Of a DNA stretch of 64,000 bases, positions 2,676-50,792 are shown one piece after another; the first letter of the stretch is position 1; each line of letters starts with the position of its first letter. The stretch lies in NCBI GenBank assembly GCA_016931495.1, contig JAFGER010000017.1:835-64834 (forward strand). The letters are read 5' to 3'. The position numbers and the translations under genes are program-made. The stretch comes from Chlorobiaceae bacterium (GTDB lineage: Bacteria; Bacteroidota; Chlorobiia; Chlorobiales; Chlorobiaceae). The notes under the pieces are model-generated. The model saw only the letters and a program-made list of their open reading frames with translations, had not been told where the DNA came from and searched no databases.

Positions 2676-2711
2676 GTCGGATCAGATCGATCGGTCTGAT
2701 CCGACTGATCT
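2676..2711. repeat. 9-bp-period micro-array / palindrome (GTCGGATCA-type)
   Basis: Units GTCGGATCA|GATCGATCG|GTCTGATCC|GACTGATCT at 2676, 2685, 2694, 2703. 12-bp stem AGTCGGATCAGA/TCTGATCCGACT. Confidence 0.75.
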
Positions 2712-2723
2712 CCCCTCCCCCGT

Positions 2724-4136
2724 TCACCCCATGCTCTGCAATGCCGCGAACGCAGCTTCGCGAACCGTTTCCGACAGCGTCGGGTGGGCGTGAACCGTGG
2801 TGGTGATGCCCTCCGCGGTGACGCCGTAGCGGCAGGCGAGGCCGAGTTCGCCGATCAGCTCGACGGCGTCGTGGCCGATGAGATGGCCGCCGAGCATCTT
2901 GCCGGTGGCGGCGTCGAAGACGAGCTTCACGAACCCTTCGAGCTGGCCAAAGGCGTTGGCCTTGCCGGACGCTGCGAACTGCGAGCGGCCAACCACGACT
3001 TCGTGCCCGGCTTTGATCGCCGCCTCTTCGGTCAGACCGACTGACGCCACCGAGGGCTGGGAATAGACGCAGCGCGGAATGAGAGCTTCCGCGAGCGGTT
3101 CGGGCGACTTTCCGGCGATGGCTTCGACCGCAATCGCGGCTTCGGCGGACGCCTTGTGCGCCAGCAGCATTCCGCCGCGCACGTCGCCGATGGCCCAGAT
3201 GCCCGGCGCGGAGGTGCGGCACTGCGCGTCGGTGCGGATGAATCCGCGCTCCGTCTCGACGCCCGCCGCTTCGAGGCCAAGTCCGTCGATCCCGCCAGTC
3301 ACGCCGACCGCCACGAGCAGGCACGCCGCTTCGAGCTTTTGCGGCTCCTGTCCTTCGACGACCAGCTCCGCGCTCACTCCGGCATCGCTGACAGCAACGT
3401 TGTCGAGCTTCGCGCCGCAGTGCACCGCGATGCCTGCTTTCTCGAACGAGCGCTTCAGCGCCTCCGAAACCTCCGCCTCCTCGGCGGGCAGAATGCGCTC
3501 CATCAGCTCGACGATGGTCACCTGCGCGCCTGCCTTGGCGTAAAACCACGCCATCTCGACGCCAATCGCCCCGCCGCCGACCACGATCATCGACTCCGGC
3601 ACCTCCTTGAAAATCAGCGCCTCGCGGCTCGTGATGATCTTCTTGCCGTCCGGCTCCAACCCCGGAATCACCCGCTGCTTCGAGCCCGTCGCCACGATGA
3701 TGTTCCGCGCTTCGAGCGTGCGCGTGGAGCCGTCCTGCGCCGTCACCGCGACGCCATTGCCGCCGGTCAGCACCGCCTCGCCCGGCCACACCTCGACCTT
3801 CGCCCGCTTCAGCATGAACTCCACGCCCTTCGAGCTTTTCAGCGCAACGTTCCGGCTGCGCTTGACCGCCTGCGCGAGATCGAACGCCGCCTCGCCTACG
3901 GTGACGCCGAAGGTCGCGGGATTCCGCGCCAGATCGTACACCTCGGCGCTTCGAAGCAGCGCCTTGGTCGGAATGCAGCCCCAGTTGACGCACACGCCGC
4001 CAAGCGCTGCCTTTTCGACGAGGCAGGTCTTCAGACCGTGACGCGCGGCGTGAATCGCCGCTTCATAACCGCCGGGGCCGGAGCCGATCACGGCAACATC
4101 AAATTGCGCGGTGGAATTGTCTGTCTGCTGCTGCAT
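2724..4136 (-). CDS. lpdA: Dihydrolipoamide dehydrogenase
   Basis: GSGPGGY FAD motif, GGVCVNWGCIPTK redox disulfide, GGGAIG NAD motif, HAHPTLSE C-terminus. Confidence 0.96.
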   Translation of the reverse strand: MQQQTDNSTAQFDVAVIGSGPGGYEAAIHAARHGLKTCLVEKAALGGVCVNWGCIPTKALLRSAEVYDLARNPATFGVTVGEAAFDLAQAVKRSRNVALKSSKGVEFMLKRAKVEVWPGEAVLTGGNGVAVTAQDGSTRTLEARNIIVATGSKQRVIPGLEPDGKKIITSREALIFKEVPESMIVVGGGAIGVEMAWFYAKAGAQVTIVELMERILPAEEAEVSEALKRSFEKAGIAVHCGAKLDNVAVSDAGVSAELVVEGQEPQKLEAACLLVAVGVTGGIDGLGLEAAGVETERGFIRTDAQCRTSAPGIWAIGDVRGGMLLAHKASAEAAIAVEAIAGKSPEPLAEALIPRCVYSQPSVASVGLTEEAAIKAGHEVVVGRSQFAASGKANAFGQLEGFVKLVFDAATGKMLGGHLIGHDAVELIGELGLACRYGVTAEGITTTVHAHPTLSETVREAAFAALQSMG

Positions 4137-4286
4137 AACTGTAAAGGATTATGGATCGGTCACTTCGTCCTGAATCTGCGGCGATGAACGATCACGGTTG
4201 CAGAGGATGAATCTTTGTGTATACTAATGTCAAATAAAAATCATGAGCGAACTTGTTTCGAAAGAGAAGCGTCTTTTACGCCTTTT

Positions 4287-4403
4287 GTCACTCTGAACGC
4301 AGTGAAGAATCCAGTTTCTTACACGCTCAATATCTGACTGATTAGTAATGACTTACAACATTTTACCGGATTCTTCACTGCGCGTTGCTTCGTTCAGAAT
4401 GAC
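4287..4403. repeat. REP/MITE-like inverted repeat
   Basis: Left arm GTCACTCTGAACGCAGTGAAGAATCC (4287-4312). Right arm GGATTCTTCACTGCG-(10 nt insert)-TTCAGAATGAC (4368-4403). AT-rich spacer. Confidence 0.75.
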
Positions 4404-4469
4404 CGTCGTCCGTAAACTCGAAGTTCACCTTTCGCTGACCTGATCGAGACAGCATCGAGCCGTCACAAA

Positions 4470-5519
4470 ATGCAAAAAGAGCCGATAAAAACCGAATCGC
4501 CCGCCGAGCTTCCGCCGGAACTGGAACCGAAGAAGATGACCATTCAGGTCAGCAAGGTGCAGACACCGATGCGCATCGACCGCTACCTCGCCCAGCAGGT
4601 GGAGAACGCCACGCGCAACAAGGTGCAGGAGGCCATCGAAGAGCAGCGCGTGCTGGTCAACGGCAGGCCGGTCAAGTCGAACTACCGCATCAAATCGAAC
4701 GACCAGATTCACATCACCTTCCTGCGTCCGCCCGCGCCGGAGCTTGCGCCGGAGGACATTCCGATCACCATTCTCTACGAGGATGACGACCTCATGGTGA
4801 TCGACAAGGAGGCCGGCATGGTGGTGCATCCGGCCTTCGGCAACTGGACGGGTACGCTCGCCAACGCGATTCTGCACCATCTCGGCAAGGATGCGGAGGA
4901 ACTCGACAAAACGGAGATGCGCCCCGGCATCGTGCACCGGCTCGACAAGGATACTTCGGGCCTCATCATCATCGCCAAGAATCCGACGGCGCTGCACCGG
5001 CTCGCCACGCAGTTCGCGCGGCGGCAGGTCGAGAAGGTCTATAAAGCGATTGTTTGGGGCGTGCCCAGTCCGCCGTCGGGGACAATAAAGACGAACATCG
5101 CCCGCTCGCACAAAAACCGCAAGGTGATGGCGAACTTCCCGTTCGAGGGCGCGGAAGGCAAGCACGCCATCACCGACTACCTGGTTGTCGAAGACCTCAC
5201 GTACTTCTCGCTGATGGACATGACGCTGCACACGGGGCGCACGCACCAGATTCGCGTGCACCTGCAACACCTCGGCCATCCGATTCTCGGCGACGAAACC
5301 TACGGCGGCGCGACGCCGCGCACGCTGCCCTTCAGCAAGAGCGAGCAGTTCACGAAAAACCTGCTGGAGCTGATGCCCCGCCAGGCGCTGCACGCCGAAA
5401 CGCTCCGCTTCCGCCAGCCCACCACCGGCGAGCCGCTCGCCTTCACCGCCCCGCTTCCGCCGGACATGCTGGCCTTGCTCGACAGAATCAGAAGCGTCAT
5501 CACGGCGTCTCGGGCCTGA
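4470..5519 (+). CDS. rluD: RluA/RluD-family pseudouridine synthase
   Basis: S4-like N-terminus (RIDRYLA), GIVHRLDKDTSG, GRTHQIRVH, HPILGDETYG. Confidence 0.93.
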   Translation: MQKEPIKTESPAELPPELEPKKMTIQVSKVQTPMRIDRYLAQQVENATRNKVQEAIEEQRVLVNGRPVKSNYRIKSNDQIHITFLRPPAPELAPEDIPITILYEDDDLMVIDKEAGMVVHPAFGNWTGTLANAILHHLGKDAEELDKTEMRPGIVHRLDKDTSGLIIIAKNPTALHRLATQFARRQVEKVYKAIVWGVPSPPSGTIKTNIARSHKNRKVMANFPFEGAEGKHAITDYLVVEDLTYFSLMDMTLHTGRTHQIRVHLQHLGHPILGDETYGGATPRTLPFSKSEQFTKNLLELMPRQALHAETLRFRQPTTGEPLAFTAPLPPDMLALLDRIRSVITASRA

Positions 5520-5609
5520 GAACGCTCAGACGCTCGGCGGTGTTACTTCTCCGCCCGTATCGCTTATATTGGCGGTATTACTTTTCAACCTCCGGAACAG
5601 TGCAAACCA

Positions 5610-6191
5610 ATGAAAGTCATCGGAATCAATGGCAGCCCCCGCCCGGCGGGCAACACCTCGATCATGCTCAAAACCGTTTTCGAGGTGCTCGAACAGGAGG
5701 GCATCGAAACGGAACTGCTTCAGGTTGGCGGCACCGGCATCAGGGGATGCCGCGCCTGTTACGCCTGCATCAAAACAAAAAACCGTGAGTGCTCGATCAA
5801 AGGGGACGGCTTCAATGAAATTTTTGAAAAGATGGTCGAAGCCGACGGCATGATTCTCGCCTCACCGGTCTATTTCGCCGACATCACCCCGGAGCTGAAA
5901 GCGCTCATCGACCGCGCGGGCTTCGTGTCGCGAACCAACGGCCAGCTCTTCCGCCACAAGGTCGGCGCTTCGGTCGTCTCGCTCCGGCGCGGCGGCGGCG
6001 TGCACGCTTTCGACAGCATCAACCACCTCTTCCAGATCTGCCAGATGTTCATGGTCGGCTCGACCTACTGGAACATGGGCTTCGGCGGACGCGACGGCGG
6101 CGAGGTGGTCAACGATACCGAAGGCATGGAGAACATGCGCGACCTCGGCAAATCGATGGCGTTTCTCCTGAAGAAGCTGAATGCGGGTTAA
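5610..6191 (+). CDS. Flavodoxin-like iron-sulfur flavoprotein / NADPH-dependent FMN reductase family
   Basis: INGSPRPAGNT, CxxCxxC-x6-C cluster motif (CRACYACIKTKNREC), ASPVYF. Confidence 0.85.
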   Translation: MKVIGINGSPRPAGNTSIMLKTVFEVLEQEGIETELLQVGGTGIRGCRACYACIKTKNRECSIKGDGFNEIFEKMVEADGMILASPVYFADITPELKALIDRAGFVSRTNGQLFRHKVGASVVSLRRGGGVHAFDSINHLFQICQMFMVGSTYWNMGFGGRDGGEVVNDTEGMENMRDLGKSMAFLLKKLNAG

Positions 6192-6240
6192 CGCTCCTGT
6201 ATCTCTCCAGCGGCAAGAACACACCAAAGCCACGCTGGGA

Positions 6241-6491
6241 GAAATTGGGCTAAAGCCCTGAAATATTTTGATTTATCTATATACCCCGGACTAAAGTCCA
6301 GGGCAATTATCAAGAGTTTCAGTAGCATCCATTCATTACGGACTCTTGCGTTCATGTTGCCCCGGCTTCTTAAATTCAGGAGGGATTCATCCCGACGGAC
6401 ATTCAAATCTTACATTCTCATCTGTTGCCCCGGCTTTCATGCCGGGGATTATGGATAGAGACAAAATTAATCAGGGCTTCAGCCCAATTTC
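6241..6491. repeat. REPIN/MITE-like inverted doublet
   Basis: Unit GAAATTGGGCTAAAGCCCTGA...CCCCGGACTAAAGTCCAGGGCAATT at 6241-6310 and an inverted copy at about 6423-6491. Terminal 21-mers match at 20 of 21 positions. A third copy lies at 18851. Confidence 0.85.
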
Positions 6492-6522
6492 TTGAGCCAT
6501 CCAAAACGATCCCTGACCACGT

Positions 6523-8703
6523 ATGCGAACACTCCGATTTTCTGCCCTCTGGAGCCTTGCTGCCCTGCTTTTTGCCCCATCAGCACTTGCCGGAAATCCG
6601 GCGAATATGGATGCGCCATCGGCCAGCACAGTCGAAACGGTGTGCGGCCAGCGCATCACCGACCCCTACCGGCCGCTTGAAAATCTCAAAGACCCGGAAG
6701 TTCAGGCCTGGTACAAGCGGCAGTCTGATCATGCGCGCGCGGTGCTCGACGCCATTCCGGGCCGCGGAGAGCTGCTCGGCAAGATGGTGGAGTTCGACAA
6801 GCGCCGTTCGGAGAAGATTTACAACCTCTCGATCACCGACAACGACCGCTACTTCTACCTCAAGCAGACGCCCGCCGACGAGACCGGCAAGCTCTTTTTC
6901 CGGCAAGGTTTCGAGGGCGAGGAGCGGCTGCTTTTCGACCCGGCGACCTGGAAAAATGGCGGCAACGGCGGCAACTTCGTCATCAGCCGGGTGTCGCCGA
7001 ACATCGACGGCTCGAAGGTGGTGATCGGCGTTTCGGCGAACGGTTCGGAAGATGCGATCCTGTTCGTCATGGAGGTCAAAAGCGGCGGCATCTGGCCGGA
7101 ACGCATCGACCGCGGACGGTTCGCCTCACCGTCGTGGCTGCCGGGCGGCAACGCTTTCTACTACACCCGCATGAACAGCAACGACCCGCTTGACCAGGAT
7201 CGGCAGAAAGACAGCCGGGTCTGGCTGCACCTCGTTGGAACCGATCCGGCGACCGACCGCGAAATTTTTTCGCGCACGCACGATCCCGAGCTGAAGATCA
7301 GGCCGGAGGACATTCCCTACGTTTCGTACGACCACAAGAGCCGCAAGCTCTATGCCTTTGTGAGCAGCGTCGATCCGCGCATCACCGCCTGGTACGCCCC
7401 CGCCGACGCAATCGGCAAGCATGAGATTCCGTGGAAGCCGCTTTTCCGCCCGGAAGACGAGGTGTACGATTTCGCGGCGACCAAACGCGACCTTTACATT
7501 TTCACCCCGAAAAACGCGCCCCGCTTCAAGGTGCTGAAAACCGCGCTCGACCGGCCCGATCTGGCGACCGCCGAAACGGTCATCGCCGAACCGGCGGAAG
7601 GCACCCTTACCAGCCTTGCGCTGACCGACAAGGGACTTTTCTACACCATCTCGACCAACGGCGTCCGCGAGGAGCTGTACCATCAGGAGTACGGCGGCAC
7701 GCAGCCGGAACGGATCGAAACTCCGTTCGAAGCGGGAACCATGTCGATCGCATCGAAAGGATTCGACAAACCGGAACTCTGGACAATCATGGGCGGATGG
7801 AACCGCGACTATCGCCGCTACCGCTACGACGTTCAACGCAACCGTTTCATCGACGAAACGCTCTCGTCGAAAGCGCGATTCCCCGAATACGACGACCTCG
7901 AAGTCCGGGAAGTGATGGTTCCATCGCACGATGGCGTCAAGGTGCCGCTGTCGCTCATCTATGATCGCGGAATGAAAAAGGATGGCAGGAATCCTGTGCT
8001 GATTTACGGCTACGGCGCATACGGCAACGCGATCACGCCCTTCTTCAGCCCGTCGCTCTTGCTGTGGACGTACAAGGGCGGCATCCTCGCCGTGGCGCAC
8101 GTGCGCGGCGGCGGCGAGCTTGGCGACGACTGGCACAAGGCTGGCCAGAAAACCACCAAGCCGAACACCTGGAAAGACCTCATCGCCTGCGCCGAATACC
8201 TCGTCAGGGAGGGCTACACCTCGCCGCAGCACATCGCCATCAACGCGGCCAGCGCTGGCGGCATCCTCGTGGGACGGGCGATGACCGAGCGCCCCGACCT
8301 CTTTGCCGCCGCCATGCCGCAGGTCGGCGTGCTCAATGCGCTGAGAGGCGAATTCAGCCCCAACGGCCCGGTCAACATTCCCGAATTCGGTACGGTCAGA
8401 AACCCGGCGGAGTGCAAGGCGCTTTTAGAAATGGATGCCTACCACCACCTCCGCGACGGCGTCAGCTACCCGGCGGCGCTCATCACCGCCGGCATCAACG
8501 ACCCGAGAGTCCCCGCCTGGCAACCCGCCAAATTCGCCGCCAGATTGCAGGAAGCCACTGCCTCCGGCAAGCCGGTACTTTTCTTCACCGACTACGAAGC
8601 GGGCCACGGCATCGGCGACATGAAAACAAAACAGTTCGAATCGCTCGCGGATATGCTCAGCTTCGGCCTGTGGCAAACCACCGGCGGCAAAGCCGCCGAA
8701 TGA
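6523..8703 (+). CDS. Secreted prolyl oligopeptidase (S9A)
   Basis: Signal peptide, DPYRPLE N-terminal motif, YGYGAYG, AHVRGGGELG, catalytic AASAGG / GINDPRV / AGHG. Confidence 0.93.
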   Translation: MRTLRFSALWSLAALLFAPSALAGNPANMDAPSASTVETVCGQRITDPYRPLENLKDPEVQAWYKRQSDHARAVLDAIPGRGELLGKMVEFDKRRSEKIYNLSITDNDRYFYLKQTPADETGKLFFRQGFEGEERLLFDPATWKNGGNGGNFVISRVSPNIDGSKVVIGVSANGSEDAILFVMEVKSGGIWPERIDRGRFASPSWLPGGNAFYYTRMNSNDPLDQDRQKDSRVWLHLVGTDPATDREIFSRTHDPELKIRPEDIPYVSYDHKSRKLYAFVSSVDPRITAWYAPADAIGKHEIPWKPLFRPEDEVYDFAATKRDLYIFTPKNAPRFKVLKTALDRPDLATAETVIAEPAEGTLTSLALTDKGLFYTISTNGVREELYHQEYGGTQPERIETPFEAGTMSIASKGFDKPELWTIMGGWNRDYRRYRYDVQRNRFIDETLSSKARFPEYDDLEVREVMVPSHDGVKVPLSLIYDRGMKKDGRNPVLIYGYGAYGNAITPFFSPSLLLWTYKGGILAVAHVRGGGELGDDWHKAGQKTTKPNTWKDLIACAEYLVREGYTSPQHIAINAASAGGILVGRAMTERPDLFAAAMPQVGVLNALRGEFSPNGPVNIPEFGTVRNPAECKALLEMDAYHHLRDGVSYPAALITAGINDPRVPAWQPAKFAARLQEATASGKPVLFFTDYEAGHGIGDMKTKQFESLADMLSFGLWQTTGGKAAE

Positions 8704-8830
8704 TGAATGATGAATTTTAAATGATGAATTGCAGGGGGTGCAGTGAAGCGCCCCTGCGCAACCATTTCCGTCCTCCGTCCACGAAGTCCACAACGTCCAC
8801 AACGTCCACCGAGTCCACTTCGTCCACGCC
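8701..8830 (+). repeat. Composite 7-mer repeat + hairpin + GTCCACnnn array
   Basis: TGATGAA-type 7-mers at 8701-8728, imperfect hairpin at 8731-8757, GTCCAC at 8777, 8786, 8795, 8804, 8813, 8822 (exact 9-bp period). Confidence 0.9.
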
Positions 8831-8833
8831 AAC

Positions 8834-9532
8834 TCAACGCCACCGCAACCACTCCAAGCGCTGCTCTTCCGGCAGCCGCTCAATGGCGTAGCGCAGCATC
8901 GTGCGCGGCATGGCGGTGGCGTGGCGGTCGAGGAAAGCTTCGAGCTGGGGCTGGTCACGCTTGCCGACTTCGCGGAGCATCCAGCCGGTTGCTTTGTGGA
9001 GCAGCTCTTCAGGGTCGGCGAGCAGGCGTTCGGCGAGGGCGAGGGTGTCGCGAAAGTCACCGTTGCGGATGAAGTGGAAGGTCGAGACGATGGCGATGCG
9101 GCGCTCCCAGAGGCTGGGCGATTCCACGAAGCGGTAGAGCGGCGTACGGTCACGCGAATCGAGATGGCGTCCGACGATGTGCGGGCAGGTGACATCGACA
9201 AGGTCCCAGTTGTTGATGCGGTCGGTGCGCTGGCAGTAGAAGTCGTACAGCGCTTCCCTGCCATGCTCATCCGACGCGCGGTAGCGCTCGATGAGCAAGA
9301 GCAGCGCCAGCATCCGGTCTTCGTGCCACGGCGAATCGAGCAGCTCCGAGATCACCTCGATTCCCGCGTGCCGGAACTCCCGGCAGAGCTTGCGCAGCAC
9401 CGGCACGCGAATGCCACGAAACCGGTCGCCCTCACCATACTCACCGGGGCCGGTCTTGAAAAAGCGCCGGAGAATCGCCGCTGTTGGAGCGTCGGCAAGG
9501 GATTCGAGGCGAGTGCGGATGTGAGCGATCAT
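8834..9532 (-). CDS. DNA alkylation repair protein (AlkD-like HEAT-repeat)
   Basis: FFKTGPGEYGEGDRFRGIRVP, INNWDLVD, LWERRIAIV, HKATGWMLREVGKRD, MPRTMLRYAIE. Confidence 0.9.
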   Translation of the reverse strand: MIAHIRTRLESLADAPTAAILRRFFKTGPGEYGEGDRFRGIRVPVLRKLCREFRHAGIEVISELLDSPWHEDRMLALLLLIERYRASDEHGREALYDFYCQRTDRINNWDLVDVTCPHIVGRHLDSRDRTPLYRFVESPSLWERRIAIVSTFHFIRNGDFRDTLALAERLLADPEELLHKATGWMLREVGKRDQPQLEAFLDRHATAMPRTMLRYAIERLPEEQRLEWLRWR

Positions 9533-9640
9533 GGTGAGTGGGGCGTTATTTGCAAAGAGTGTGTCTCGTGGAACAGATGGACCTTATAGGACAAATGGGA
9601 GTGAGAAAAGACGATGATGCAGTGTGGCGTGCTGCTTTTT

Positions 9641-9772
9641 GTAGGGGCAGGCCCCCGTGCCTGCCCGTTTGCTGCGAAATTCTGCGGCACTCCCGAAAGG
9701 GCAACCGCGAGGGTTGCCCCTACAAAATCCCGGCAACCTCGCGCAAGGGCGAACACGCAGGTTCGCCCCTAC
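9641..9772. repeat. Cluster of three GTAG-type REP palindromes
   Basis: GTAGGGGCAGGCCCCCGTGCCTGCCC (9641-9666, +), GTAGGGGCAACCCTCGCGGTTGCCC (9699-9723, -), GTAGGGGCGAACCTGCGTGTTCGCCC (9747-9772, -). Confidence 0.85.
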
Positions 9773-9790
9773 GACACCGTTTCATCCCCC

Positions 9791-9826
9791 GTCCACCAAG
9801 TCCACCAAGTCCACGCCGTCCACAAC
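9791..9826 (+). repeat. GTCCACnnn 9-bp array
   Basis: GTCCAC at 9791, 9800, 9809, 9818. Confidence 0.9.
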
Positions 9827-9837
9827 CACCCTCTCTC

Positions 9838-11739
9838 TCACGCCAGCTCAGCCAGCTCGCCCCAGCGATCCATGTCGCTTTCGAGCTTTTCCTGAATCTT
9901 GTGCAGTTCGTCGCCCAGCCTTTGCACGGCTTCAAAATCGGTGCCAGCGTTGGCAAGTTCGGCGTTGATCGCTTCCTGACGCGTTTCGGCTTCGGCGATG
10001 GCCTGTTCGAGCTGCTCCAGTTCTCGCTTCTCCCTGCTGTTGAGTTTGCGCTGTTTTGGCGATGATGTCGGCTTCGGCGCCTCGGACACGGGTTTTGCGG
10101 TGGACGTGGGCTTCTGTTTTGCAGCCTGCTCTTCGGCGGTGGCAGCAGCTTTCATCTCCAGATAGACGCTGTAGTTGCCGGGATAGCGGCGCACGATGCC
10201 GTCGCCCTCGAAGGCGAAGATGTGCTCGACGGTGCGGTCGAGGAAGTAGCGGTCGTGGCTCACGACGACGAGGCAGCCGGGAAAGGTGTCGAGGTAATCT
10301 TCGAGCACGCGCAGGGTCGGAATGTCGAGATCGTTGGTCGGCTCGTCGAGCAGCAGCACGTTGGGGGCTCCGATGAGCTGGCGCAAGAGGTAGAGCCGCC
10401 GCCGCTCGCCGCCGGAGAGGTTGCCGATGGGGTTGTACTGCGCCGCGCCTGAAAAGAGGAACCGTTCGAGCATCTTTGCCGCCGAGACCAGCGTACCGTC
10501 CTTCGTTTTGATCTGCTCGGCCTCCTCCTTGATGTATTCGATCACGCGCTTTTCGTCGTCGAGGTGGCGGCTCTCCTGGTCGTAATAGCCGATCTTGACC
10601 GTCGGGCCGATCTCGATGCGGCCGCTGTCGGGCTTGGTGCGCCCGGCGATCATTTCGAGCAGCGTGGTCTTGCCGGAGCCGTTCGGGCCGATGATGCCGA
10701 TGCGGTCGCCCTTTTCGAGCAGGTAGTCGAACGAGCGGAGCAGCTTTTTCTCGCCCCACGATTTCGAGACGTCGTGGAACTCGACGATCTTGTTGCCGAG
10801 CCGCTCCGCGCCGAAGCCGATCTCCATCTCCTGCTTCTGCTCCTTTTTCGGGGCGTACACCAGCGCCTCGGCCCGCTGCAACCGCGCCTTCTGCTTAGTG
10901 GTGCGCGCCTTCGCTCCGGTTCGCATCCACTCCAGCTCCTGCTTGGCCAGAGCGTTGCGCTTGCGCTCGTCGCGAATCTCCTGCGCCTCTTCCTCCTCCT
11001 TCTGGACAAGGTAGCTCGCGTAGCCGCCGGTGTAGGTTTTGGCCGTTTTGCCGTCCAGCTCGATCATGCGGGTGGCGACGCGGTCGAGAAAGTAGCGGTC
11101 GTGCGTAATCAGGATCACTGCGCCAGCGTAACGCTTGATGTAATTTTCGAGCCACTCGACGCTGTCGGCATCGAGGTGGTTGGTCGGCTCGTCGAGAATG
11201 AGCGCGTCGCTCGGCACCACGAGGGCGTGCGCCAGTGCGACGCGCTTGCGCTGGCCGCCGGAGAGCGTGCCCATCTTCGCTGTCAGGTCGTTCAGGCCGA
11301 GCTTGCCGAGCACCGACTTGGCGTTCGATTCGAGATCCCACGCGCCGCTTACGTCGAGTTCGTGCGACAGGTTCGTCACCTTCTCGATCAGCGCAGCGTC
11401 GCCGTCCGACTCCTCCAGCGCCTTGAGCGCCAGCTCGTACTCGCAGATCAGCGCCATCACCTTGTCGCCCGACTTCAGCACCGCTTCGAGCACGGTATCA
11501 TCCGCGTCGTATGGCGAGACCTGCGGCAGATAGGAGATTTTCTTTTCCTTCGACACCATCACCCTTCCAGTATCGGGCGTCTCGCTCCCGGCGAGGATTT
11601 TCATCAGCGTGCTCTTGCCGCTGCCGTTCGCGCCGATGATGCCCACCTTGTCGCGGTCATCGATGCCGAACGACACCTCCGTGAACAGCGTTTTCAACCC
11701 GTATGTCTTGCCAATTCCCTCGACCGTCAGAAGAACCAT
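9838..11739 (-). CDS. uup: ABC-F family ATP-binding protein (Uup-like)
   Basis: Two ABC cassettes (GANGSGKS, LSGGQRKR; GPNGSGKT, LSGGERRR), no TM segments, C-terminal coiled coil (KLNSREKRELEQL). Confidence 0.88.
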   Translation of the reverse strand: MVLLTVEGIGKTYGLKTLFTEVSFGIDDRDKVGIIGANGSGKSTLMKILAGSETPDTGRVMVSKEKKISYLPQVSPYDADDTVLEAVLKSGDKVMALICEYELALKALEESDGDAALIEKVTNLSHELDVSGAWDLESNAKSVLGKLGLNDLTAKMGTLSGGQRKRVALAHALVVPSDALILDEPTNHLDADSVEWLENYIKRYAGAVILITHDRYFLDRVATRMIELDGKTAKTYTGGYASYLVQKEEEEAQEIRDERKRNALAKQELEWMRTGAKARTTKQKARLQRAEALVYAPKKEQKQEMEIGFGAERLGNKIVEFHDVSKSWGEKKLLRSFDYLLEKGDRIGIIGPNGSGKTTLLEMIAGRTKPDSGRIEIGPTVKIGYYDQESRHLDDEKRVIEYIKEEAEQIKTKDGTLVSAAKMLERFLFSGAAQYNPIGNLSGGERRRLYLLRQLIGAPNVLLLDEPTNDLDIPTLRVLEDYLDTFPGCLVVVSHDRYFLDRTVEHIFAFEGDGIVRRYPGNYSVYLEMKAAATAEEQAAKQKPTSTAKPVSEAPKPTSSPKQRKLNSREKRELEQLEQAIAEAETRQEAINAELANAGTDFEAVQRLGDELHKIQEKLESDMDRWGELAELA

Positions 11740-11981
11740 GCCCAATCCCGTTTAGCGCTGAAAAAGGTGCAATATAACCTAAAAGCCCGCCGATTCCCCG
11801 CTCCTGCGCAATCGGGCATCGAACACCGTTTTGCCCCGGAAGCAGCAAAGGGTTCACCGGCCGGATGTGTGGCAGATTGATCTGGTGCTGAATGGCTGAA
11901 ATGCGAAAGCCGCCCCATCCCAAGCGGTTTCAGGACGGGGCGGCGATGGGAATGGGCGGACGAAAAAGCGGTGATCTCCGC

Positions 11982-15908: not shown

Positions 15909-15944
15909 TTCCTATAGGTCGAAGAGTACTTATAAGACCTATTC
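15909..15944. repeat. 9-bp-period CCTATA-type micro-array
   Basis: TTCCTATAG|GTCGAAGAG|TACTTATAA|GACCTATTC; related to the arrays at 43282 and 45093. Confidence 0.6.
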
Positions 15945-20433: not shown

Positions 20434-20452
20434 AAAGCGAACGACGGTAACG

Positions 20453-20491
20453 AAAAAAGGCTGCCCGGAATTTTCCGTGGCAGCCTTTTTT
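20453..20491. terminator. Bidirectional intrinsic terminator (hisB / rny)
   Basis: AAAAAAGGCTGCC...GGCAGCCTTTTTT. Confidence 0.85.
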
Positions 20492-20505: not shown

Positions 20506-20532
20506 GTCAGATCGGCCTGAACGATCCGATCT
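20506..20532. repeat. 9-bp-period GTCAGATCG-type micro-array
   Basis: GTCAGATCG|GCCTGAACG|ATCCGATCT; resembles the 2676 array. Confidence 0.5.
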
Positions 20533-20534: not shown

Positions 20535-22109
20535 TTACTTTGCAAACGCGACCGAGCGTTTTTCGCGCAGAATGGTGACCTTGATCTGGCCGGGGTACTG
20601 CGCTTCGGATTCGATCTTGCTGGCGATGTCGTGGGCGAGCACATCGGCCTGCGAGTCGCTGACGTTGTCGCCTTCGACGATCACCCTTATTTCGCGGCCA
20701 GCCTGCAACGCATAGGTCTTGATGACGCCAGGGAATCCTTTGGCGATCTCTTCGAGGCTTTCAAGACGCTTGACGTTGCCTTCGGCGGTCACCGCTCCGC
20801 GGGCTCCGGGGCGCGAGAGCGAGATGACGTTGGCCGCATCGACCAGATCGGCAATGGGCGACTCTTTCTCGACCTCTCCATGATGAGCGGCGATGGCGTT
20901 GAGCACCACGGGCGACTCGTTGAATTTCCTGAGGAACTCCATGCCGGCCAGCGCGTGCGGCAATTCGGTTTCTGGCAGAACAAGGCCGATGTCGTGCAGC
21001 AGGCCGGCGCGTTTGGCCTGTTTTGCGTTAAGCTTCAGCTCGGCAGCCATAAGGCCAGCCAGCATGGCAACCTCACGGCTGTGCAGGAGAAGGTTCTGGC
21101 CATAGACGGTATGGAACTTCATCTTGCCGATCAGGGCGACCAGCTCTGCGGGCATGTCGGGAATCTGCAAAGAAGAAAGCGCCTCTTCGCCGGACGACAT
21201 GATGACGTCGTCAATCTCTTTTTTGGCGTCCTGATAAGCTTTTTCAATGGCGGCGGGATGGATGATGCCATCGACGAGCAGCTTCTGCAGGGTGAGTTTG
21301 GCCATTTCCCGGCGCAGCGGATCGAAGCAGGAGAGAATGACCACCTCCGGTGTATCATCGACGATGATGTCAACGCCCGTGGCGTTCTCGAAAGCCTTGA
21401 TGTTGCGGCCTTCGCGCCCGATGATGCGGCCCTTGAGTTCGTCGCTCTGGATGTGCACCACCGACAGGGCGCTTTCGGTAGCCTGCTCAAAGGAGATGCG
21501 CTGGATGGCGGTGAGCAGAATCTTTTCGGCAATGCGGTCGGCTTTCTGGGCAGCCTCTTCGTGAATCTGGTGCACCGTTTCGGTGGCCTCTTCCCTGGCT
21601 TTGGAGATCATGTTGTCGATAAGCATCTGGCGTGCCTCTTCGGCGGTCAGGTTCGAGATACTTTCGAGGCGCTGGTTCTGCTCGAAGATGATCTTTTCAA
21701 GCTCGGCCGAACGGCTCTGCACGGTTTCGGTCAGATGTCTGAGCTCAGCCTTCTGGTCCTGAAGCTTCTTTTCGGTGTCGCGAACCTCTTTCTGCTGGCT
21801 GTTGAGTGACGTCTCCTTCTGGCGAATCTGCTTCTGCATCTGGGCGAACTTGTTGTTCTTGATCGTCACTTCGCTATCAAATTCGCGCTTGCGCTTCTTC
21901 CACTCCTGGTTGACTTCGTTGACCTTCAGATCCTTGTATTCGTTGGCCTCTTTCTGGGCCTCCTGCACGACCTGCACGGCACGCTCTTCGGCTTCGAGAA
22001 CCTTGGTGGTGCCGATACGCTCAAGAAAGAACCGGCCGATGTAGAAACCGACCGCAAAAAAGATCACGGATGCAGCAATAATGAGAAACAGATTTATTAC
22101 GATCCCCAT
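20535..22109 (-). CDS. rny: Ribonuclease Y
   Basis: N-terminal TM, coiled coil, KH domain (KGRIIGREGRNI), HD domain (AGLLHDIG, AAHH), YALQAGREIRV. Confidence 0.96.
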   Translation of the reverse strand: MGIVINLFLIIAASVIFFAVGFYIGRFFLERIGTTKVLEAEERAVQVVQEAQKEANEYKDLKVNEVNQEWKKRKREFDSEVTIKNNKFAQMQKQIRQKETSLNSQQKEVRDTEKKLQDQKAELRHLTETVQSRSAELEKIIFEQNQRLESISNLTAEEARQMLIDNMISKAREEATETVHQIHEEAAQKADRIAEKILLTAIQRISFEQATESALSVVHIQSDELKGRIIGREGRNIKAFENATGVDIIVDDTPEVVILSCFDPLRREMAKLTLQKLLVDGIIHPAAIEKAYQDAKKEIDDVIMSSGEEALSSLQIPDMPAELVALIGKMKFHTVYGQNLLLHSREVAMLAGLMAAELKLNAKQAKRAGLLHDIGLVLPETELPHALAGMEFLRKFNESPVVLNAIAAHHGEVEKESPIADLVDAANVISLSRPGARGAVTAEGNVKRLESLEEIAKGFPGVIKTYALQAGREIRVIVEGDNVSDSQADVLAHDIASKIESEAQYPGQIKVTILREKRSVAFAK

Positions 22110-25676: not shown

Positions 25677-25748
25677 TGACCCCAACGGGATTCGAACCCG
25701 TGCTACCACCTTGAAAGGGTGATGACCTAACCACTAGTCGATGGGGCC
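25677..25748 (-). tRNA. tRNA-Glu(TTC)
   Basis: GGCCCCATCGACTAGTGGTTAGGTCATCACCCTTTCAAGGTGG...GGTTCGAATCCC. Confidence 0.95.
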
Positions 25749-25797
25749 AAAAAATATTATTGTCCTGAAATCCGGACAGAACCTTCGTCAGACTCGG

Positions 25798-25872
25798 GGT
25801 GAATGAGGGGACTCGAACCCCCGACCTCCAGGGCCACAACCTGGCGCTCTAACCACCTGAGCTACAATCACC
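25798..25872 (-). tRNA. tRNA-His(GTG)
   Basis: GGTGATTGTAGCTCAGGTGGTTAGAGCGCCAGGTTGTGGCCCTGG...GGTTCGAGTCC; G-1/C73. Confidence 0.95.
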
Positions 25873-25905
25873 ATGTTACATACGAACTCAAAAAACATCC
25901 TCCTG

Positions 25906-25978
<73 letters not shown>

Positions 25979-26001
25979 ATAACACCTGTCGCTGCTCTCC
26001 C

Positions 26002-26077
26002 TGGTCGGGGCACCGAGACTCGAACTCGGGACCTCCTGCTCCCAAAGCAGGCACGCTACCAGCTGCGCCATGCCCCG
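26002..26077 (-). tRNA. tRNA-Pro(TGG)
   Basis: CGGGGCATGGCGCAGCTGGTAGCGTGCCTGCTTTGGGAGCAGG...AGTTCGAGTC...ACCA. Confidence 0.95.
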
Positions 26078-30056: not shown

Positions 30057-30158
30057 ATTTTCCGGCATCCCCATTACCTATGGACACGGTGCCAAAAGCT
30101 CTCTTGCGGGACTTGTCCCCGGAGCTTGCCGAAAGGCTTCCCGTGTCCCGTCTGTCCC
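30057..30158 (+). ncRNA. SAM-Chlorobi RNA motif
   Basis: GGACACGG/CCGTGTCC closing stem, GCTC/GAGC, GGGAC-TT-GTCCC and GCC-GAAA-GGC hairpins, directly 5' of metK-ahcY. Matches the context and recalled consensus of the published SAM-Chlorobi motif. Confidence 0.8.
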
Positions 30159-43281: not shown

Positions 43282-43329
43282 TTCCTGTAGGACTTATAGG
43301 CCCTATACGACCTATAAGTCCTACAGGAA
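43282..43329. repeat. Perfect 19-bp inverted repeat built from 9-bp CCTATA-type units
   Basis: TTCCTGTAGGACTTATAGG / CCTATAAGTCCTACAGGAA; units at 43282, 43291, 43300, 43309, 43318. Confidence 0.85.
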
Positions 43330-44532: not shown

Positions 44533-44637
44533 AACCATTGCCGCCTCATTGACGGAATCAGCCGAATCGCTATTTTACAGAAGTACCGACCGTTACAAGC
44601 TCAATCCGGAACGATCAATCTCCTGAATTCAGAAACC

Positions 44638-45081: not shown

Positions 45082-45092
45082 AATCAACGCTT

Positions 45093-45128
45093 CTCCTGTA
45101 AGTCCTGTACGACCTACAGGGCTTGTAA
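45093..45128. repeat. 9-bp-period CCTGTA/CCTACA micro-array
   Basis: CTCCTGTAA|GTCCTGTAC|GACCTACAG|GGCTTGTAA, between convergent genes. Confidence 0.7.
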
Positions 45129-45147
45129 ACTCTTCCGCCCCAAAACT

Positions 45148-46251: not shown

Positions 46252-46347
46252 GGCTGAAAATTCAGGATTGACCGATTGGTAACAATGTACCACTCCAGCC
46301 TCTTTTCCGGAACAATCCCGAATGAAACAAACCTCCGAAACCCCGGC

Positions 46348-46647: not shown

Positions 46648-46664
46648 GCATCCTGACAAATCTG

Positions 46665-47411
46665 TCACATCGTGAACCAGGCAGGAACATGGCTCCAGGC
46701 GTGCCGCATCCGGCGGTCGTGCTCCTTCCAGTCCGGATCGTACCGCGCCACCGCGTCCCAGAACTTCGGCGAATGATTCATGTGCAGCGTGTGGCAAAGC
46801 TCATGAATCATGATGTGACGCACCAGCTCCGGCGGCAGAAAGAGCAGCTTGAGATTGAGACTGATCGTGCCCTTCGTCGAGCAGCTCCCCCACCGGCTCC
46901 GCTGCTTGCGGAACGAAACGCGCGAAATGGCAAAGCGATGCTCCGAAGCAAGTCCCAGGAGCCGGGGCGCGAGCTTGACCTTCGCACGATGCTTGAGCCA
47001 GCCTTCAAGCGCCTTGCGGCACAGTTCGTGATTGCCGACCAGGCCCGAAAGCTCGACCCGGCTGCCCTCCTTTTCCTGAATCTGAATGCCCGTCGTCTGC
47101 AACCGCTCATCACGATAGACGACATCCCACACCTCTCCGATACCGGCCAGCGCAATCCGCTCCGGAAGGGCTTCGCCGGAAACCGCTTCATCGGCGGGTC
47201 GATGTTTTTCGAAGGCCTGACGGGTTTTCATGATCCACTCCGCCTTGCTCTCGACCAGCGCCGGAACCAGCGTCCTGTCGAAACCGGCAGGCACAATGAC
47301 GACCAGACCATCGTAAGGCGAGAATTTCAGGCGAACACTCCTTGCCCGGCCACTGACCCTGACCGTATAGGGAACTGACGAGAAGTGTGATGCGGAAGAT
47401 GATGGGAGCAT
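46665..47411 (-). CDS. YgjP-like / M48-SprT metallopeptidase
   Basis: QRSRWGSCS, IMIHELCHTLHMNHSPKFW. Confidence 0.88.
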   Translation of the reverse strand: MLPSSSASHFSSVPYTVRVSGRARSVRLKFSPYDGLVVIVPAGFDRTLVPALVESKAEWIMKTRQAFEKHRPADEAVSGEALPERIALAGIGEVWDVVYRDERLQTTGIQIQEKEGSRVELSGLVGNHELCRKALEGWLKHRAKVKLAPRLLGLASEHRFAISRVSFRKQRSRWGSCSTKGTISLNLKLLFLPPELVRHIMIHELCHTLHMNHSPKFWDAVARYDPDWKEHDRRMRHAWSHVPAWFTM

Positions 47412-47601
47412 CGGAACGATTCAGAAAACAAACGGTTGAGGAAGCTGCCTTGAAGTATAAGCACTCCGCCACAAGAATAAAATTGGTCATTCCGGGAAAG
47501 CCGGAAGCGGCAATCCCTCCGGGCCATCCTTCATGCCGAAGGCAAAGAAGCGGTTTTCCATGATTTTTTCCGATCCGCAACTCCGGAAATTTGGAAAATA
47601 A

Positions 47602-47755
47602 TTAACGATTGTTAAATTAATTCCTAATCAGTACCCCGACACCATCAGCTGACCTCAAGCTGCGACAATCAGAAAACCAGCAAGACGAAACAAGTTTTTT
47701 GATAAGATCGAAAAATGTCGGATATTAACAATTGTGATTTATTAACAATCGTTAA
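47602..47755. promoter_or_regulatory. Candidate operator sites TTAAC-N4-GTTAA
   Basis: TTAACGATTGTTAA (47602-47615), its exact reverse complement TTAACAATCGTTAA (47742-47755) and partial TTAACAATTGTGAT (47725), in an AT-rich divergent promoter region. Confidence 0.6.
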
Positions 47756-47814
47756 ATCAAATCAAAAAGAAATACCGACACAACGCCTCCATCAAACCCA
47801 AACGCTCTACGACC

Positions 47815-48279
47815 ATGACAGCCAACACCCCCAACGGAATCCCGATGCCCATCATCAACCTGACCAGGTATCTTCTCGTGACAGGCATCATTCTTGCCAT
47901 CGTCCTGCAGCAGCCGCTGATCACCACAGGGCTCTTCTTTCTCATGCTTCCTGCCGTGATCTGGGGCAAAAAGGCCAGCCTGATCTTTTACATCGGATCG
48001 CACCTTTTCAAAAAATGGAACGCGACGGCTCACACCGAAAGCCCGAAACTGACCCGCTTCAACAACTCGATCGCCGTGATTCTGCTTGGCATGGCTCAGG
48101 TCGCCTTCTTTTTCAACGCTGACCTTGCCGGCTATATTTTTTCAGGTATCGTCGCCCTGGCCGCCTTTATCGCAATCTGCGGATTCTGCGTCGGCTGCTT
48201 CCTGTTCTTCCAGTACAACATGCAGAAGCACAAGCTGTTTGGACGCAAAACCTCTCCCCAGTACAACACTGCCGGCTGA
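47815..48279 (+). CDS. DUF4395-like membrane protein
   Basis: PKLTRFNNSIA...LAAFIAICGFCVGCFLF motif. Confidence 0.8.
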   Translation: MTANTPNGIPMPIINLTRYLLVTGIILAIVLQQPLITTGLFFLMLPAVIWGKKASLIFYIGSHLFKKWNATAHTESPKLTRFNNSIAVILLGMAQVAFFFNADLAGYIFSGIVALAAFIAICGFCVGCFLFFQYNMQKHKLFGRKTSPQYNTAG

Positions 48280-48292
48280 GTTTTTCCTGAGC

Positions 48293-48490
48293 GTTACTCC
48301 GGCAACCAGAACAGGCGCAGTTGAGCAAGAACGGGGGTTCTGCTCCTGAATGGAGCGCAGTGAACCACTGGATTCATGATGCCTGCATCAGGCGTGAAAC
48401 AGCGCAAATACCGTTCATTGCCGGAGTAACTGCAGCAACTCCCCCCGGAAGAAACCTGTCAGCCCTCGCGGCTTCAGGTTTCTTCTGTTT
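48293..48490 (+). other. Candidate structured RNA plus terminator-like hairpin
   Basis: 13-bp stem 48293-48305/48418-48430 enclosing a multi-stem junction; hairpin 48448-48485 followed by TGTTT. Confidence 0.5.
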
Positions 48491-48613
48491 ATCCTCCTCG
48501 TCATCGGCCAGCCCGGCCCGAAATTCAACAGCAAGCAGAGAAAAGCCCGTGACTGAAACGGAGATTCTGGTTACCTTTCCCTGAGGATCACGACAACTGT
48601 TGCAACCACGCCC

Positions 48614-49756
48614 ATGCACTTTGAAACCATCGCCATCCACGACGGCAATACGCCGGAACGGTGCGCCGGATCGGTGATGCCGCCGGTTTACCAGACTTCG
48701 ACCTTCGCGCGGCCAAGCCTCGACGAGCGGGGCGAATTCTTCTATTCGCGCATCGGCAACCCCACGCGCTCGGCGCTCGAAACGACCCTCGCGCTGCTTG
48801 AAAATGGCAGGTACGCCACGACCTTCGCCTCGGGCGTGGCGGCGATGATGGCCGCAGTGCAGGTGCTCAGACCGGGCGATCACGTCGTTTCAAGCCTCGA
48901 CGTTTACGGCGGGAGCTACCGGATTTTCGAGCAGCTTCTGCGTCCGTGGGGCGTCGAAACCTCCTACGCGGCGAGCGAGGCGACAGAGAGCTTTCTCGAC
49001 TGCATCCGCCCGGAGACGCACATGATCTGGATCGAATCGCCCTCGAATCCGCTTTTGCAAATCTGCGACATCCGCGCCCTCGCCGAAATCGCCAACGAAC
49101 GCGGCATCGTGCTCGCGGTCGATAACACCTTCGCCAGCCCGTACTTCCAGCGCCCGCTCGACCTCGGCGCGCACCTCGTCGTGCACTCGACCACCAAGTA
49201 CCTCGGCGGCCACAGCGACGTGATCGGCGGCGCGGTCGTCGCGTCGGACGACGACCTGCACCTCGCCGTCCGCAACTACCAGGGCGCGGCGGGCGCGATT
49301 CCCGGCCCGTGGGATTGCTGGCTGATTTCGCGTGGCATCAAAACGCTGAAAATCCGCATGGAGGAGCACCAGAAAAACGCGCTGCATCTGGCGCGAGCGC
49401 TTGAAGCGCATCCGGCGGTGAGCCGCGTCATCTACCCCGGCCTGCCGTCGCATCCGCAGCACGAGCTGGCCAAGAGCCAGATGAGCGGCTTCGGCGGCAT
49501 GGTCACGATTGCGCTGAAAGGCGGGCTTCCGGCAGTTCGGAAGATGATCGGCACATTGAAACTCTTCGTTATTGCCGACAGCCTCGGCGGCGTGGAGTCG
49601 CTCGTCGCCTCGCCCGCGCGCATGACCTTCGGCCCGCTGAGTCAGGCGGAGCGCGACCGACGCGCCTGCACCGACGACCTGGTGCGGCTCTCGGTCGGCC
49701 TCGAAAACGCGGAAGACCTCGAACAGGATCTCCTGCAAGCTCTTGCAACCATCTGA
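48614..49756 (+). CDS. metB: PLP-dependent trans-sulfuration enzyme (cystathionine gamma-synthase/beta-lyase family)
   Basis: PPVYQTSTF, YSRIGNPTR, ESPSNP, VDNTFASP, HSTTKYLGGHSD, SLGGVESL; MetB versus MetC not resolved. Confidence 0.8.
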   Translation: MHFETIAIHDGNTPERCAGSVMPPVYQTSTFARPSLDERGEFFYSRIGNPTRSALETTLALLENGRYATTFASGVAAMMAAVQVLRPGDHVVSSLDVYGGSYRIFEQLLRPWGVETSYAASEATESFLDCIRPETHMIWIESPSNPLLQICDIRALAEIANERGIVLAVDNTFASPYFQRPLDLGAHLVVHSTTKYLGGHSDVIGGAVVASDDDLHLAVRNYQGAAGAIPGPWDCWLISRGIKTLKIRMEEHQKNALHLARALEAHPAVSRVIYPGLPSHPQHELAKSQMSGFGGMVTIALKGGLPAVRKMIGTLKLFVIADSLGGVESLVASPARMTFGPLSQAERDRRACTDDLVRLSVGLENAEDLEQDLLQALATI

Positions 49757-49765
49757 TTTACACGC

Positions 49766-50698
49766 ATGGCTATCATCCCGAATATCACGAGCACCATCGG
49801 ACGCACACCGCTGGTGCGGCTCAACAAGCTCGCCGAGGGCCTCGAAGCCGACATTCTGCTCAAACTCGAATACTTCAACCCGCTTGGCAGCGTCAAGGAT
49901 CGCATCGGGCGAGCGATGATCGAGGCCGCCGAAGCCGAGGGAAAGATCGACGCCCGGACGCTCATCGTCGAGCCGACCAGCGGCAACACCGGCATCGCGC
50001 TCGCCTTCGTCTGCGCCCAGCGCGGCTACCGGCTGCTGCTCACGATGCCCGAAACCATGAGCGTCGAGCGGCGCAAACTGCTGCGCTACCTCGGCGCGGA
50101 GCTGGTGCTCACCCCCGGCGCACAGGGGATGAGGGGGGCGATAGAAGAGGCGGCGCGGATCGTCGAGGCCGAAAAGAACAGCTTCAACCCCGGCCAGTTC
50201 AGTAATCCGGCCAACCCCCGCATTCACCAGGCGACCACCGGCCCCGAAATCTGGAACGACACCGAGGGGCGGGTTGACATGCTCGTGGCGGGCGTCGGCA
50301 CGGGCGGCACCATCACCGGAACCTCGCGCTTTATCAAGGCGCTGAAACCCGGCTTCAAAAGCATCGCGGTCGAGCCGAAAGATTCGCCGGTGCTCTCCGG
50401 CGGCCAGCCGGGGCCACACAAAATCCAGGGGATCGGCGCAGGCTTCGTGCCCGAAGCGCTCGACGTGTCGCTGCTCGACGAGGTGGTGACGGTGAGCAAC
50501 GACGACGCCATTTCGACCGCGCGAGCGCTCGCCGCAAGCGAAGGCATCCTCTGTGGCATCTCGTCGGGCGCGGCGGTTCACGCGGCTATCGAAGTGGCCA
50601 GGCGCTCCTCGTCAGCAGGCAAAACCATCGTAGCCATCATCCCCAGCACCGGCGAGCGCTACCTCAGCACCGCGCTCTTCGAAGGCATCGAGGCGTAA
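49766..50698 (+). CDS. cysK: Cysteine synthase A
   Basis: [43 protein letters not shown]. Confidence 0.96.
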
Positions 50699-50700
50699 AA

Positions 50701-50792
50701 TGAATAATTGATAATGGATAGTTCAGGCGCGGTGATTTTCCGCGCCTTCCATTCCTGTCCACCTCGTCCACGCAGTCCACTTCGTCCACTTC
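50701..50792 (+). repeat. Composite 7-mer repeat + hairpin + GTCCACnnn array (second copy of module)
   Basis: TGAATAA|TTGATAA|TGGATAG, AGGCGCGG/CCGCGCCT hairpin at 50725-50747, GTCCAC at 50757, 50766, 50775, 50784. Confidence 0.88.

Follow-up and report, generated by a model that had tools for sequence, protein, structure and literature searches.

Gene-end arrays of tandem nine-nucleotide modules in Chlorobaculum: possible extragenic stem-loop elements of Chlorobiaceae

The genus Chlorobaculum carries dozens of short arrays of tandem 9-nucleotide (nt) modules, which look like a gene-end repeat element rather than chance microsatellites. The arrays were analyzed from a 64,000-nt stretch of DNA, the window (C37:835-64834 of the 2.25-Mb, 106-contig genome of a Chlorobaculum sp., G000), in which a previous sequence-only reading had listed eight arrays with a 9-bp period; all eight are present where it placed them. 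The explanation that we prefer, with about even confidence, is that the arrays are lineage-specific gene-end stem-loop elements of Chlorobiaceae, built of tandem 9-nt modules, minisatellite-like in their evolution, and comparable to the repetitive extragenic palindromes (REP) and bacterial interspersed mosaic elements (BIME) of other bacteria.

Period, unit, position and pairing

Arrays with at least four units and at least 66% self-match were searched in 441 kb of crudely defined intergenic DNA of the window's genome. At period 9 there were 95 of them against 2.0 in shuffled sequences, and the control periods gave 15 against 4.6 (period 8), 2 against 0.6 (period 10) and 5 against 0.2 (period 12). 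A second genome, G036, of which 2.4 of the 2.8 Mb were analyzed, contained 92 period-9 arrays against 3.8 in shuffles, so that the proposal of a non-random, genome-wide fixed period is borne out by a shuffle-controlled scan. Arrays of at least four units phased on G-W-C (W being A or T) numbered 59 at period 9 and at most 7 at every other period from 5 to 15, and exact GTCCACNNN arrays with at least two units were found 53 times in the window's genome. Since the seemingly coding arrays fall at the ends of open reading frames (ORFs) or over the starts of over-extended ones, the class is essentially intergenic.

The anatomy of the unit was studied on 51 intergenic arrays defined by GTCC at period 9 alone, which left columns 5 and 6 unascertained. 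Identity within arrays was 0.89 and 0.85 at these two columns, and 0.32, 0.29 and 0.38 at columns 7-9, which is the background found between arrays; adjacent units gave the same column identities as non-adjacent ones. The unit therefore consists of a constant hexamer, with a GGAC core on the mRNA-sense strand and GTCC on the opposite one, and three nearly free bases. The vocabulary of these spacers is skewed towards CAA, AAA, AAC, TTC, AGC, CTC and TCA, G is avoided, and 96 of 105 spacers end in A or C; by eye, the spacers of the window's genome look common in other species too. Compared by eye with the DnaA box TTATCCACA, the GTCCAC units match 5-6 of 9 positions, a partial likeness only, the box having T where spacer column 9 has A or C and the other families giving no match.

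Six families are found in the window's genome, namely GTCCACnnn, GTCCCAnnn, GTCC(C/T)Tnnn, GTCCATnnn, G(T/A)CCTATAn and G(T/A)CnGATCn. The sequence-only reading had regarded its families as unrelated sequences sharing one period, and this premise did not hold: GTCC/GGAC, or at minimum GWC, stands in the same phase in all of them, and single arrays of relatives mix GTCCAC with GTCCCT and GTCCTT, GTCCCA with GTCCTA, or GTCCGATC with GTCCAT, so that single-base steps connect the families. Judged from this common core and the mixed arrays, the families would most simply be variants of one ancestral 9-mer from which the period was inherited.

The arrays occupy the extragenic positions typical of REP and BIME, at gene 3' ends and between convergent genes. 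For 78 intergenic arrays of the window's genome the context was convergent in 33, tandem in 34 and divergent in 6, the background being 237, 789 and 253; in G036 the corresponding numbers were 24, 24 and 2. Between stop codon and array lie a median of 6 nt (interquartile range 3-9). Of the arrays at no more than 25 nt from a stop, 22 of 26 in the window's genome and 22 of 23 in G036 have GGAC on the sense strand of the gene (in total 44 of 49; combined p = 8e-9). By cumulative GC skew, G036 has its origin near 0 and its terminus near 1.26 Mb; the G-rich strand is the leading one in 24 arrays and the lagging one in 20, with the stop-proximal GGAC-sense arrays split 10 to 12, and this balance indicates that polarity follows the gene and not replication. 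A hint of replication-strand polarity in the draft genome (24:9 against local skew) was accordingly dropped, being gone (24:20) where origin and terminus could be mapped. Two further candidates were rejected or weakened: a link to the reading frame of the stop codon, which is weak and inconsistent (frames 0, 1 and 2 at 2:13:8 in G000 and 5:6:11 in G036), and a general G>C skew after stops, which genome-wide is only modest.

The stop-proximal GGAC-sense arrays of the two genomes fold with downstream sequence at z < -2 in 27 of 44 cases (~61%; median z -3.9), and more than half of the array bases are paired with it in 35 of the 44. Sixteen inverted pairs of arrays were found, with the G-rich arm first in 15 (p = 5e-4) and folding energies of -18 to -57 kcal/mol, mostly -30 or lower. 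The spacers of their inner units are frequently complementary, and a pair may combine families, TGGGAC arms for example facing GTCCAC arms; the TATA and GATC families, which are self-complementary, fold on their own. With a stop-proximal polarity of 44:5 and hairpins in most arrays, an RNA 3'-end signal fits best among the options that the sequence-only reading had offered.

A subgroup of the inverted pairs has in common a loop of ~30 nt, AAAAACCSCGRAGAATCGYTCTTCAYTCTTC, with a small stem of its own, GAGAA/TTCTC (C42:22871-22901, C65:2641-2667, C80:9501-9538 and C102:4577-4608), which suggests one copied sub-family.

The eight arrays of the window

The arrays of the window and their companions are the following (dot, no strand assigned).

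2676..2711, dot: GWCnGATCn-family array of about 4 units, self-complementary, 12-bp hairpin 2675-2686 / 2695-2706 (z -3.85); 12 nt 3' of the stop of a pyridine-nucleotide-disulphide oxidoreductase gene (2724-4136, minus)
8698-8729: AT-rich 7-mer repeats GAATGAT, overlapping the stop codon of the prolyl-oligopeptidase gene
8698..8764, plus: companions of the 8777 array, the GAATGAT repeats followed by the GC hairpin GCAGGGG...CCCCTGC (8738-8764)
8777..8827, plus: six GTCCACnnn units (GTGGAC when read on the minus strand), unstructured; starts 6 nt 3' of the stop of a DNA-alkylation-repair gene (8834-9532, minus) and lies 73 nt 3' of that of the prolyl-oligopeptidase gene (6523-8703, plus)
~9600-9775: doublet of REP-like GTAGGGG hairpins, downstream of the 9791 array in the sense direction of the ABC-F gene
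9791..9823, plus: four GTCCACnnn units, in minus-strand reading GTGGAC 14 nt 3' of the ABC-F gene stop (9838-11745, minus)
15909..15944, dot: degenerate G(T/A)CCTATA-type array, weak 7-bp stem (z -0.8); 30 nt 3' of the stop of an NFACT-family gene (15879) and 40 nt 5' of a thioesterase gene start
20506..20532, dot: degenerate GWCnGATCn-type array (z -1.4); 2 nt 3' of the RNase Y gene stop (20535-22109, minus)
43282..43329, dot: G(T/A)CCTATA-family array of 5 units, perfect 19-bp stem (z -7.2); 19 nt 3' of the SulP permease stop (43263)
45093..45128, dot: CCTGTA/CCTACA-variant array of about 4 units, hairpin 45097-45127 (z -3.3); 12 nt 3' of a PCC-domain gene's stop (45081); the convergent gene stops 20 nt away (45148)
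50757..50789, plus: four GTCCACnnn units, unstructured, within a C-rich, G-poor tract of ~85 nt; 59 nt 3' of the cysK stop (50698), after 7-mer repeats and the hairpin 50724-50748

The position past stop codons described by the sequence-only reading was found throughout, all eight arrays being intergenic and at most 75 nt 3' of a stop, six of them at most 20 nt. The flanking genes are unrelated housekeeping genes (oxidoreductase, prolyl oligopeptidase, DNA-alkylation repair, ABC-F, NFACT-family, RNase Y, SulP, PCC-domain and cysK). Tandem Repeats Finder called period 9 at 8776-8827 (5.8 copies), 9791-9814, 43284-43328 and 50757-50792, and a self-similarity scan additionally detected 2675-2710. 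Those at 15909, 20506 and 45093, which are degenerate and weaker, can be interpreted only as members of the genome-wide families. The mixture of folding and purely direct arrays is real: those at 2676, 43282 and 45093 fold (z -3.9, -7.2 and -3.3), and the three GTCCAC arrays are unstructured. Each of these three adjoins a separate hairpin, which is the GTAGGGG REP-like doublet at 9791 and a GC hairpin at the other two (8738-8764 and 50724-50748).

The order stop codon, hairpin and C-rich array at 8777 and 50757 resembles the stem-loop-plus-rut arrangement of Rho-dependent 3' ends (PMC13613805), and brings in the possibility that the C-rich strand is a Rho-utilization (rut) site which stops run-out transcripts antisense to the neighbouring gene. 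The GTCC strand is indeed richer in C than in G, unstructured in these arrays, set within C>G tracts of 70-100 nt, and G is avoided in its spacers. However, primary Rho sites are modelled as YC dimers with linkers of 9-13 nt in a footprint of 57 nt (PMC6144790), which gives Rho a period of 11-15 nt and not of 9, the arrays having YC+N7. In addition, YC suffices for Rho and would leave the conserved hexamer unexplained, the C-rich arm is paired in 61% of the stop-proximal arrays, and in sense RNA these arrays are G-rich (44:5). We therefore consider a rut function quite improbable.

Several further features accompany the window arrays. A canonical bidirectional intrinsic terminator, with a GC stem between an A-run and a T-run, is found in the gap between hisB and the RNase Y gene (~20452-20490) and adjoins the 20506 array, so that ordinary terminators coexist with the arrays. 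AT-rich arrays of 7-bp period (GATAATN / GAATGAT), in sense orientation and with almost no C, overlap or directly follow stop codons at 8698-8729, at 50699-50720 and at ~20 further loci of the genome; period 7 is over-represented there, at 57 against 13 in shuffled sequences. Their GATAAT hexamer is similar to the Fur-box unit, and at the cysK locus the AT-rich 7-bp arrays are conserved in several species. REP-like hairpins of the form GTAGGGGC...GCCCCTAC stand singly or as doublets beside arrays (~9600-9775; L095/L099), and their copy number differs (2 against 1) between the genomes G008 and G036.

Turnover between genomes and the nature of the element

Among 401 genomes of the phylum, three-unit GTCCAC arrays occur almost only in Chlorobiaceae; in the ~310 non-Chlorobiaceae genomes sampled no GTCCAC 9-mer arrays were found, except for two matches in one genome. 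Within the genus some species have dozens of arrays and others none or one. The generic four-unit GTCC-N5 pattern is present in most, not all, congeners, with different dominant hexamers (GTCCAT and GTCCYTTNG in G034). Five-unit GWC arrays give 14 matches per strand in the window's genome, or ~10 distinct loci once overlaps and two coding-looking matches are excluded, and none in a single-contig genome of the genus of 2,154,946 bp.

Individual loci change by whole units. The window carries 6 units in the 3' flank of the prolyl-oligopeptidase gene, and three other lineages carry 4, 4 and 3, with the hexamers retained and different spacers. At the ABC-F flank, 4 units in the window stand against 2 in G016, G017 and G031, the two extra units being identical (GTGGACttg), and 16 other species have nothing or other repeats there. 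No counterpart of the cysK array (50757) was seen when 20 congeneric genomes were compared at the locus. Between G008 and G036, which are 95% identical and were compared at two loci, one array has 3 against 5 units, a difference of 18 bp alongside a change in REP copy number, and a paired element differs by two substitutions only, both within hexamers, which argues against strong per-site purifying selection on the hexamers. The predicted gain and loss of units at orthologous loci thus took place (6/4/4/3, 4 against 2 and 3 against 5 units), and the loci are not the invariant terminators that would have spoken against it. The arrays are dispensable. They share with variable-number tandem repeats (VNTR) the change by whole units between related genomes; neighbouring units are not more alike than distant ones. 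Other micro-repeats were seen in the same 3' flanks of relatives, such as TCCACTC/TCCACTG at period 7 (L002, in a metagenome-assembled genome (MAG) of Chlorobiaceae, ~3740-3800) and GTGACAA at period 7 (ABC-F flank of G010), the gene-end niche being filled by different micro-repeats in different species.

These patterns also suit minisatellites that have no function and are neutral or selfish, in which the polarity would follow from an instability linked to transcription, such as R-loops past the stop codon, where the non-template strand is G-rich and ribosomes no longer cover the RNA. The patchy distribution with some species lacking arrays, the presence or absence at single loci, the unit indels and REP copy-number change between 95%-identical genomes and the substitutions within hexamers are all in line with this, and any tolerated insert would be depleted in divergent, promoter-containing regions. 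Neutrality leaves unexplained, however, why the same hexamer stands at more than 50 loci with unique flanks, why spacers resemble random draws from a shared vocabulary and why the spacers of inner units in pairs are frequently complementary, and we regard it as unlikely.

In the stem-loop reading that we prefer, the element would be transcribed as the first part of the 3' untranslated region (UTR), starting at a median of 6 nt after the stop codon, and would usually constitute the G-rich 5' arm in a long stem-loop that lacks a U-tract. Opposite it, the C-rich 3' arm would be an inverted array of the same class or, in the self-complementary families, the array itself. Because every unit carries the same hexamer, the arms could pair in any register, and the spacers, located in small internal loops, would be free to vary. 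Whole 9-bp units would be gained and lost, a step size that the genome comparisons show, presumably by slipped-strand events or unequal exchange between hexamers, and arrays would also decay through point mutation. By analogy with REP/BIME, the element probably acts as a largely dispensable stem-loop that protects or defines mRNA 3' ends. Owing to its closeness to the stop codon, the stem-loop would have to be partly melted by the terminating ribosome.

Several observations weigh against this reading. The 10 nt after the hairpins contain on average 2.1 T, with six or more T in 0 of 27; the GC-rich hairpin directly followed by a U-tract that defines an intrinsic terminator is thus missing, and the hairpins are not canonical terminators of this kind. 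Long stem-loops without U-tracts at transcript 3' ends do occur in other clades (PMC13613805). About 40% of the stop-proximal arrays, including those at 8777 and 9791, are partnerless and still have perfect hexamers, so that a hairpin model leaves them unaccounted for; a search for a consistent hairpin 3' of partnerless arrays gave no significant result. Nor does the reading account for the G-arm-first polarity. Of 52 pairs of adjacent spacers 5 are identical, 6.7% being expected (p = 0.26), and as adjacent spacers are no more alike than random draws, simple recent slippage is not the main source of units. Finally, a further constraint is hinted at by the skewed vocabulary of spacers, which is shared between species. 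Partnerless arrays whose hexamers are perfect, the shared spacers in random order, the spread of the hexamer to unique flanks and the G-arm-first order keep both protein-binding and neutral models alive.

The arrays could instead be periodic sites for an oligomeric RNA- or DNA-binding protein that recognizes one hexamer per 9 nt or bp, in RNA as TRAP does with spaced triplets or in DNA as ribbon-helix-helix proteins do with tandem 7-8-bp boxes, with the hairpins being secondary. Such a protein would account for the sharp partition between constant hexamer and free spacer, for the perfect hexamers of partnerless arrays (6 of 6 at 8777), for the retention of hexamers across four lineages in which spacers and unit number change, and for the transcription-linked polarity. 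It is harder to reconcile with the coexistence of at least five hexamer variants in one genome, with congeners entirely devoid of arrays and with a per-site constraint so weak that the only two substitutions between close relatives in the paired element are both in hexamers; nor was a candidate factor found, CsrA being absent and the Chlorobi-RRM leader having no GGAC repeats. A binding protein is, on balance, doubtful, though by no means negligible.

A more speculative proposal, which we rate as improbable, is that the arrays are a periodic 3'-UTR code or, in a sister version, that they are born by transcription-polar (R-loop) instability where ribosomes leave the RNA. In the former version a Chlorobiaceae-specific factor, or the terminating ribosome together with RNA polymerase, would recognize the GGAC-core hexamers every 9 nt along the nascent RNA directly past the stop codon, the end of translation would be coupled to mRNA 3'-end formation or decay, and the species-specific hexamer variants would reflect co-evolution with the factor. 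If birth by R-loops were true, it would be a new way of generating bacterial repeats.

Known factors and repeat systems

Known families and factors were compared with the arrays. CsrA (PF02599) is absent from 26 of 26 genomes of the genus, control genomes being positive, which rules out a CsrA-type GGA sponge or target. A link to the Chlorobi-RRM leader or to RRM proteins is weakened by the lack of GGAC repeats in the leaders. No family covers the arrays in an Rfam scan, and neither Rfam nor a full-text literature search gave a description of them. They are not miniature inverted-repeat transposable elements with a conserved body, since the flanks are unique and only the one pair subgroup has a common central loop of ~30 nt.

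The sequence-only reading had raised protein-templated repeat addition, with a link to Avd/IVP genes, and co-occurrence with Y1/HUH genes. A machine of this sort would be a diversity-generating-retroelement (DGR)/Avd-like system, a Y1/HUH transposase or the source of 9-bp transposon target-site duplications, each adding or recombining repeats. Some arrays adjoin REP-like GTAGGGG hairpins at a fixed ~18 nt, and two Y1_Tnp (PF01797) genes are present in the window's genome. Nevertheless, the array-rich genomes G008 and G003 have no PF01797 match, which discards dependence on a REP-associated tyrosine transposase (RAYT) or other Y1 gene and the proposed co-occurrence with it. Most arrays have no adjoining REP, the flanks contain no conserved element body, and simple duplications predict identical neighbouring units, which are not enriched. 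For protein-templated repeat addition and the Avd/IVP link no evidence was found; the Pfam scan covered ten array-flanking genes, among which there is neither a reverse transcriptase nor an Avd gene. Such a machine thus appears extremely improbable.

The stem-loop reading takes its analogy from the REP/BIME of Enterobacteria and Pseudomonas, which are likewise extragenic, located at gene 3' ends and in convergent gaps, often arranged as inverted pairs of hairpins and species-variable in copy number. REPs stabilize upstream mRNA, and Liang, Rudd and Deutscher reportedly found in 2015 that many of them lie within ~15 nt of stop codons and affect translation termination and tagging by transfer-messenger RNA (tmRNA). 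REPs are, on the other hand, single imperfect palindromes of 20-40 bp that carry a terminal tag, GTAG or CGTC, and are associated with RAYT transposases (PMC3733652). The arrays are untagged and consist of tandem 9-nt modules with six constant and three variable positions, place the G-rich arm first and do not depend on a Y1 transposase.

The short tandemly repeated repetitive (STRR) heptamers of heterocystous cyanobacteria, said to have been described by Mazel et al. in 1990, are similar in being dispersed intergenic tandems of very short units, with several families per period, restricted to a lineage and with no function established. They differ in period (7 against 9) and their sequences are unrelated; they are not known to have a division into constant and variable positions, a polarity relative to stop codons or paired arms. 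Oligomeric proteins are known to use boxes of this size, as the 8-bp metboxes of MetJ, the 7-bp heptads of the omega protein and the (G/U)AG repeats that TRAP binds on RNA. Their 2-11 short units in fixed register, free spacer bases and direct as well as inverted arrangements recall the arrays, whereas they serve few regulated promoters or leaders and the arrays occupy 50-100 loci after unrelated genes. Rho rut sites share with 8777 and 50757 the C-rich, G-poor, unstructured tract 3' of a stem-loop, and differ in that period 9 is below the YC+N9-13 spacing (PMC6144790), the hexamer is conserved and the C-rich arm is mostly paired.

The arrays would add a new architecture to the classes of bacterial extragenic repeats (REP/BIME, STRR, Correia and mycobacterial interspersed repetitive units, MIRU), characterized by tandem 9-nt modules of 6+3 positions, a location ~6 nt after stops and a polarity that goes with the gene and not with replication. 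Since a terminating ribosome must meet a stem-loop in this stop-proximal geometry, translation termination or the fate of the mRNA could be tuned by the elements at roughly 5% of genes. With array-rich species beside an array-free one, the genus offers a natural experiment. Moreover, the arrays offer ready-made VNTR markers for telling Chlorobaculum strains and MAGs apart, and probably cause breaks and mis-joins in draft assemblies.

Two minor observations concern the rest of the genome and of the window. An identical 28-mer, CTTATTTCTTTTTTCTTATCCATAAACC, is found at the ends of contigs C39, C61, C62, C71, C79 and C104 (positions 4-43) and at ~10 internal sites; it probably marks the border of a multi-copy element by which the assembly was broken up. 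The Rfam matches in the window are a SAM-Chlorobi riboswitch (30063-30150), a tmRNA (60026-60429) and a cluster of four tRNA genes (25677-26077).

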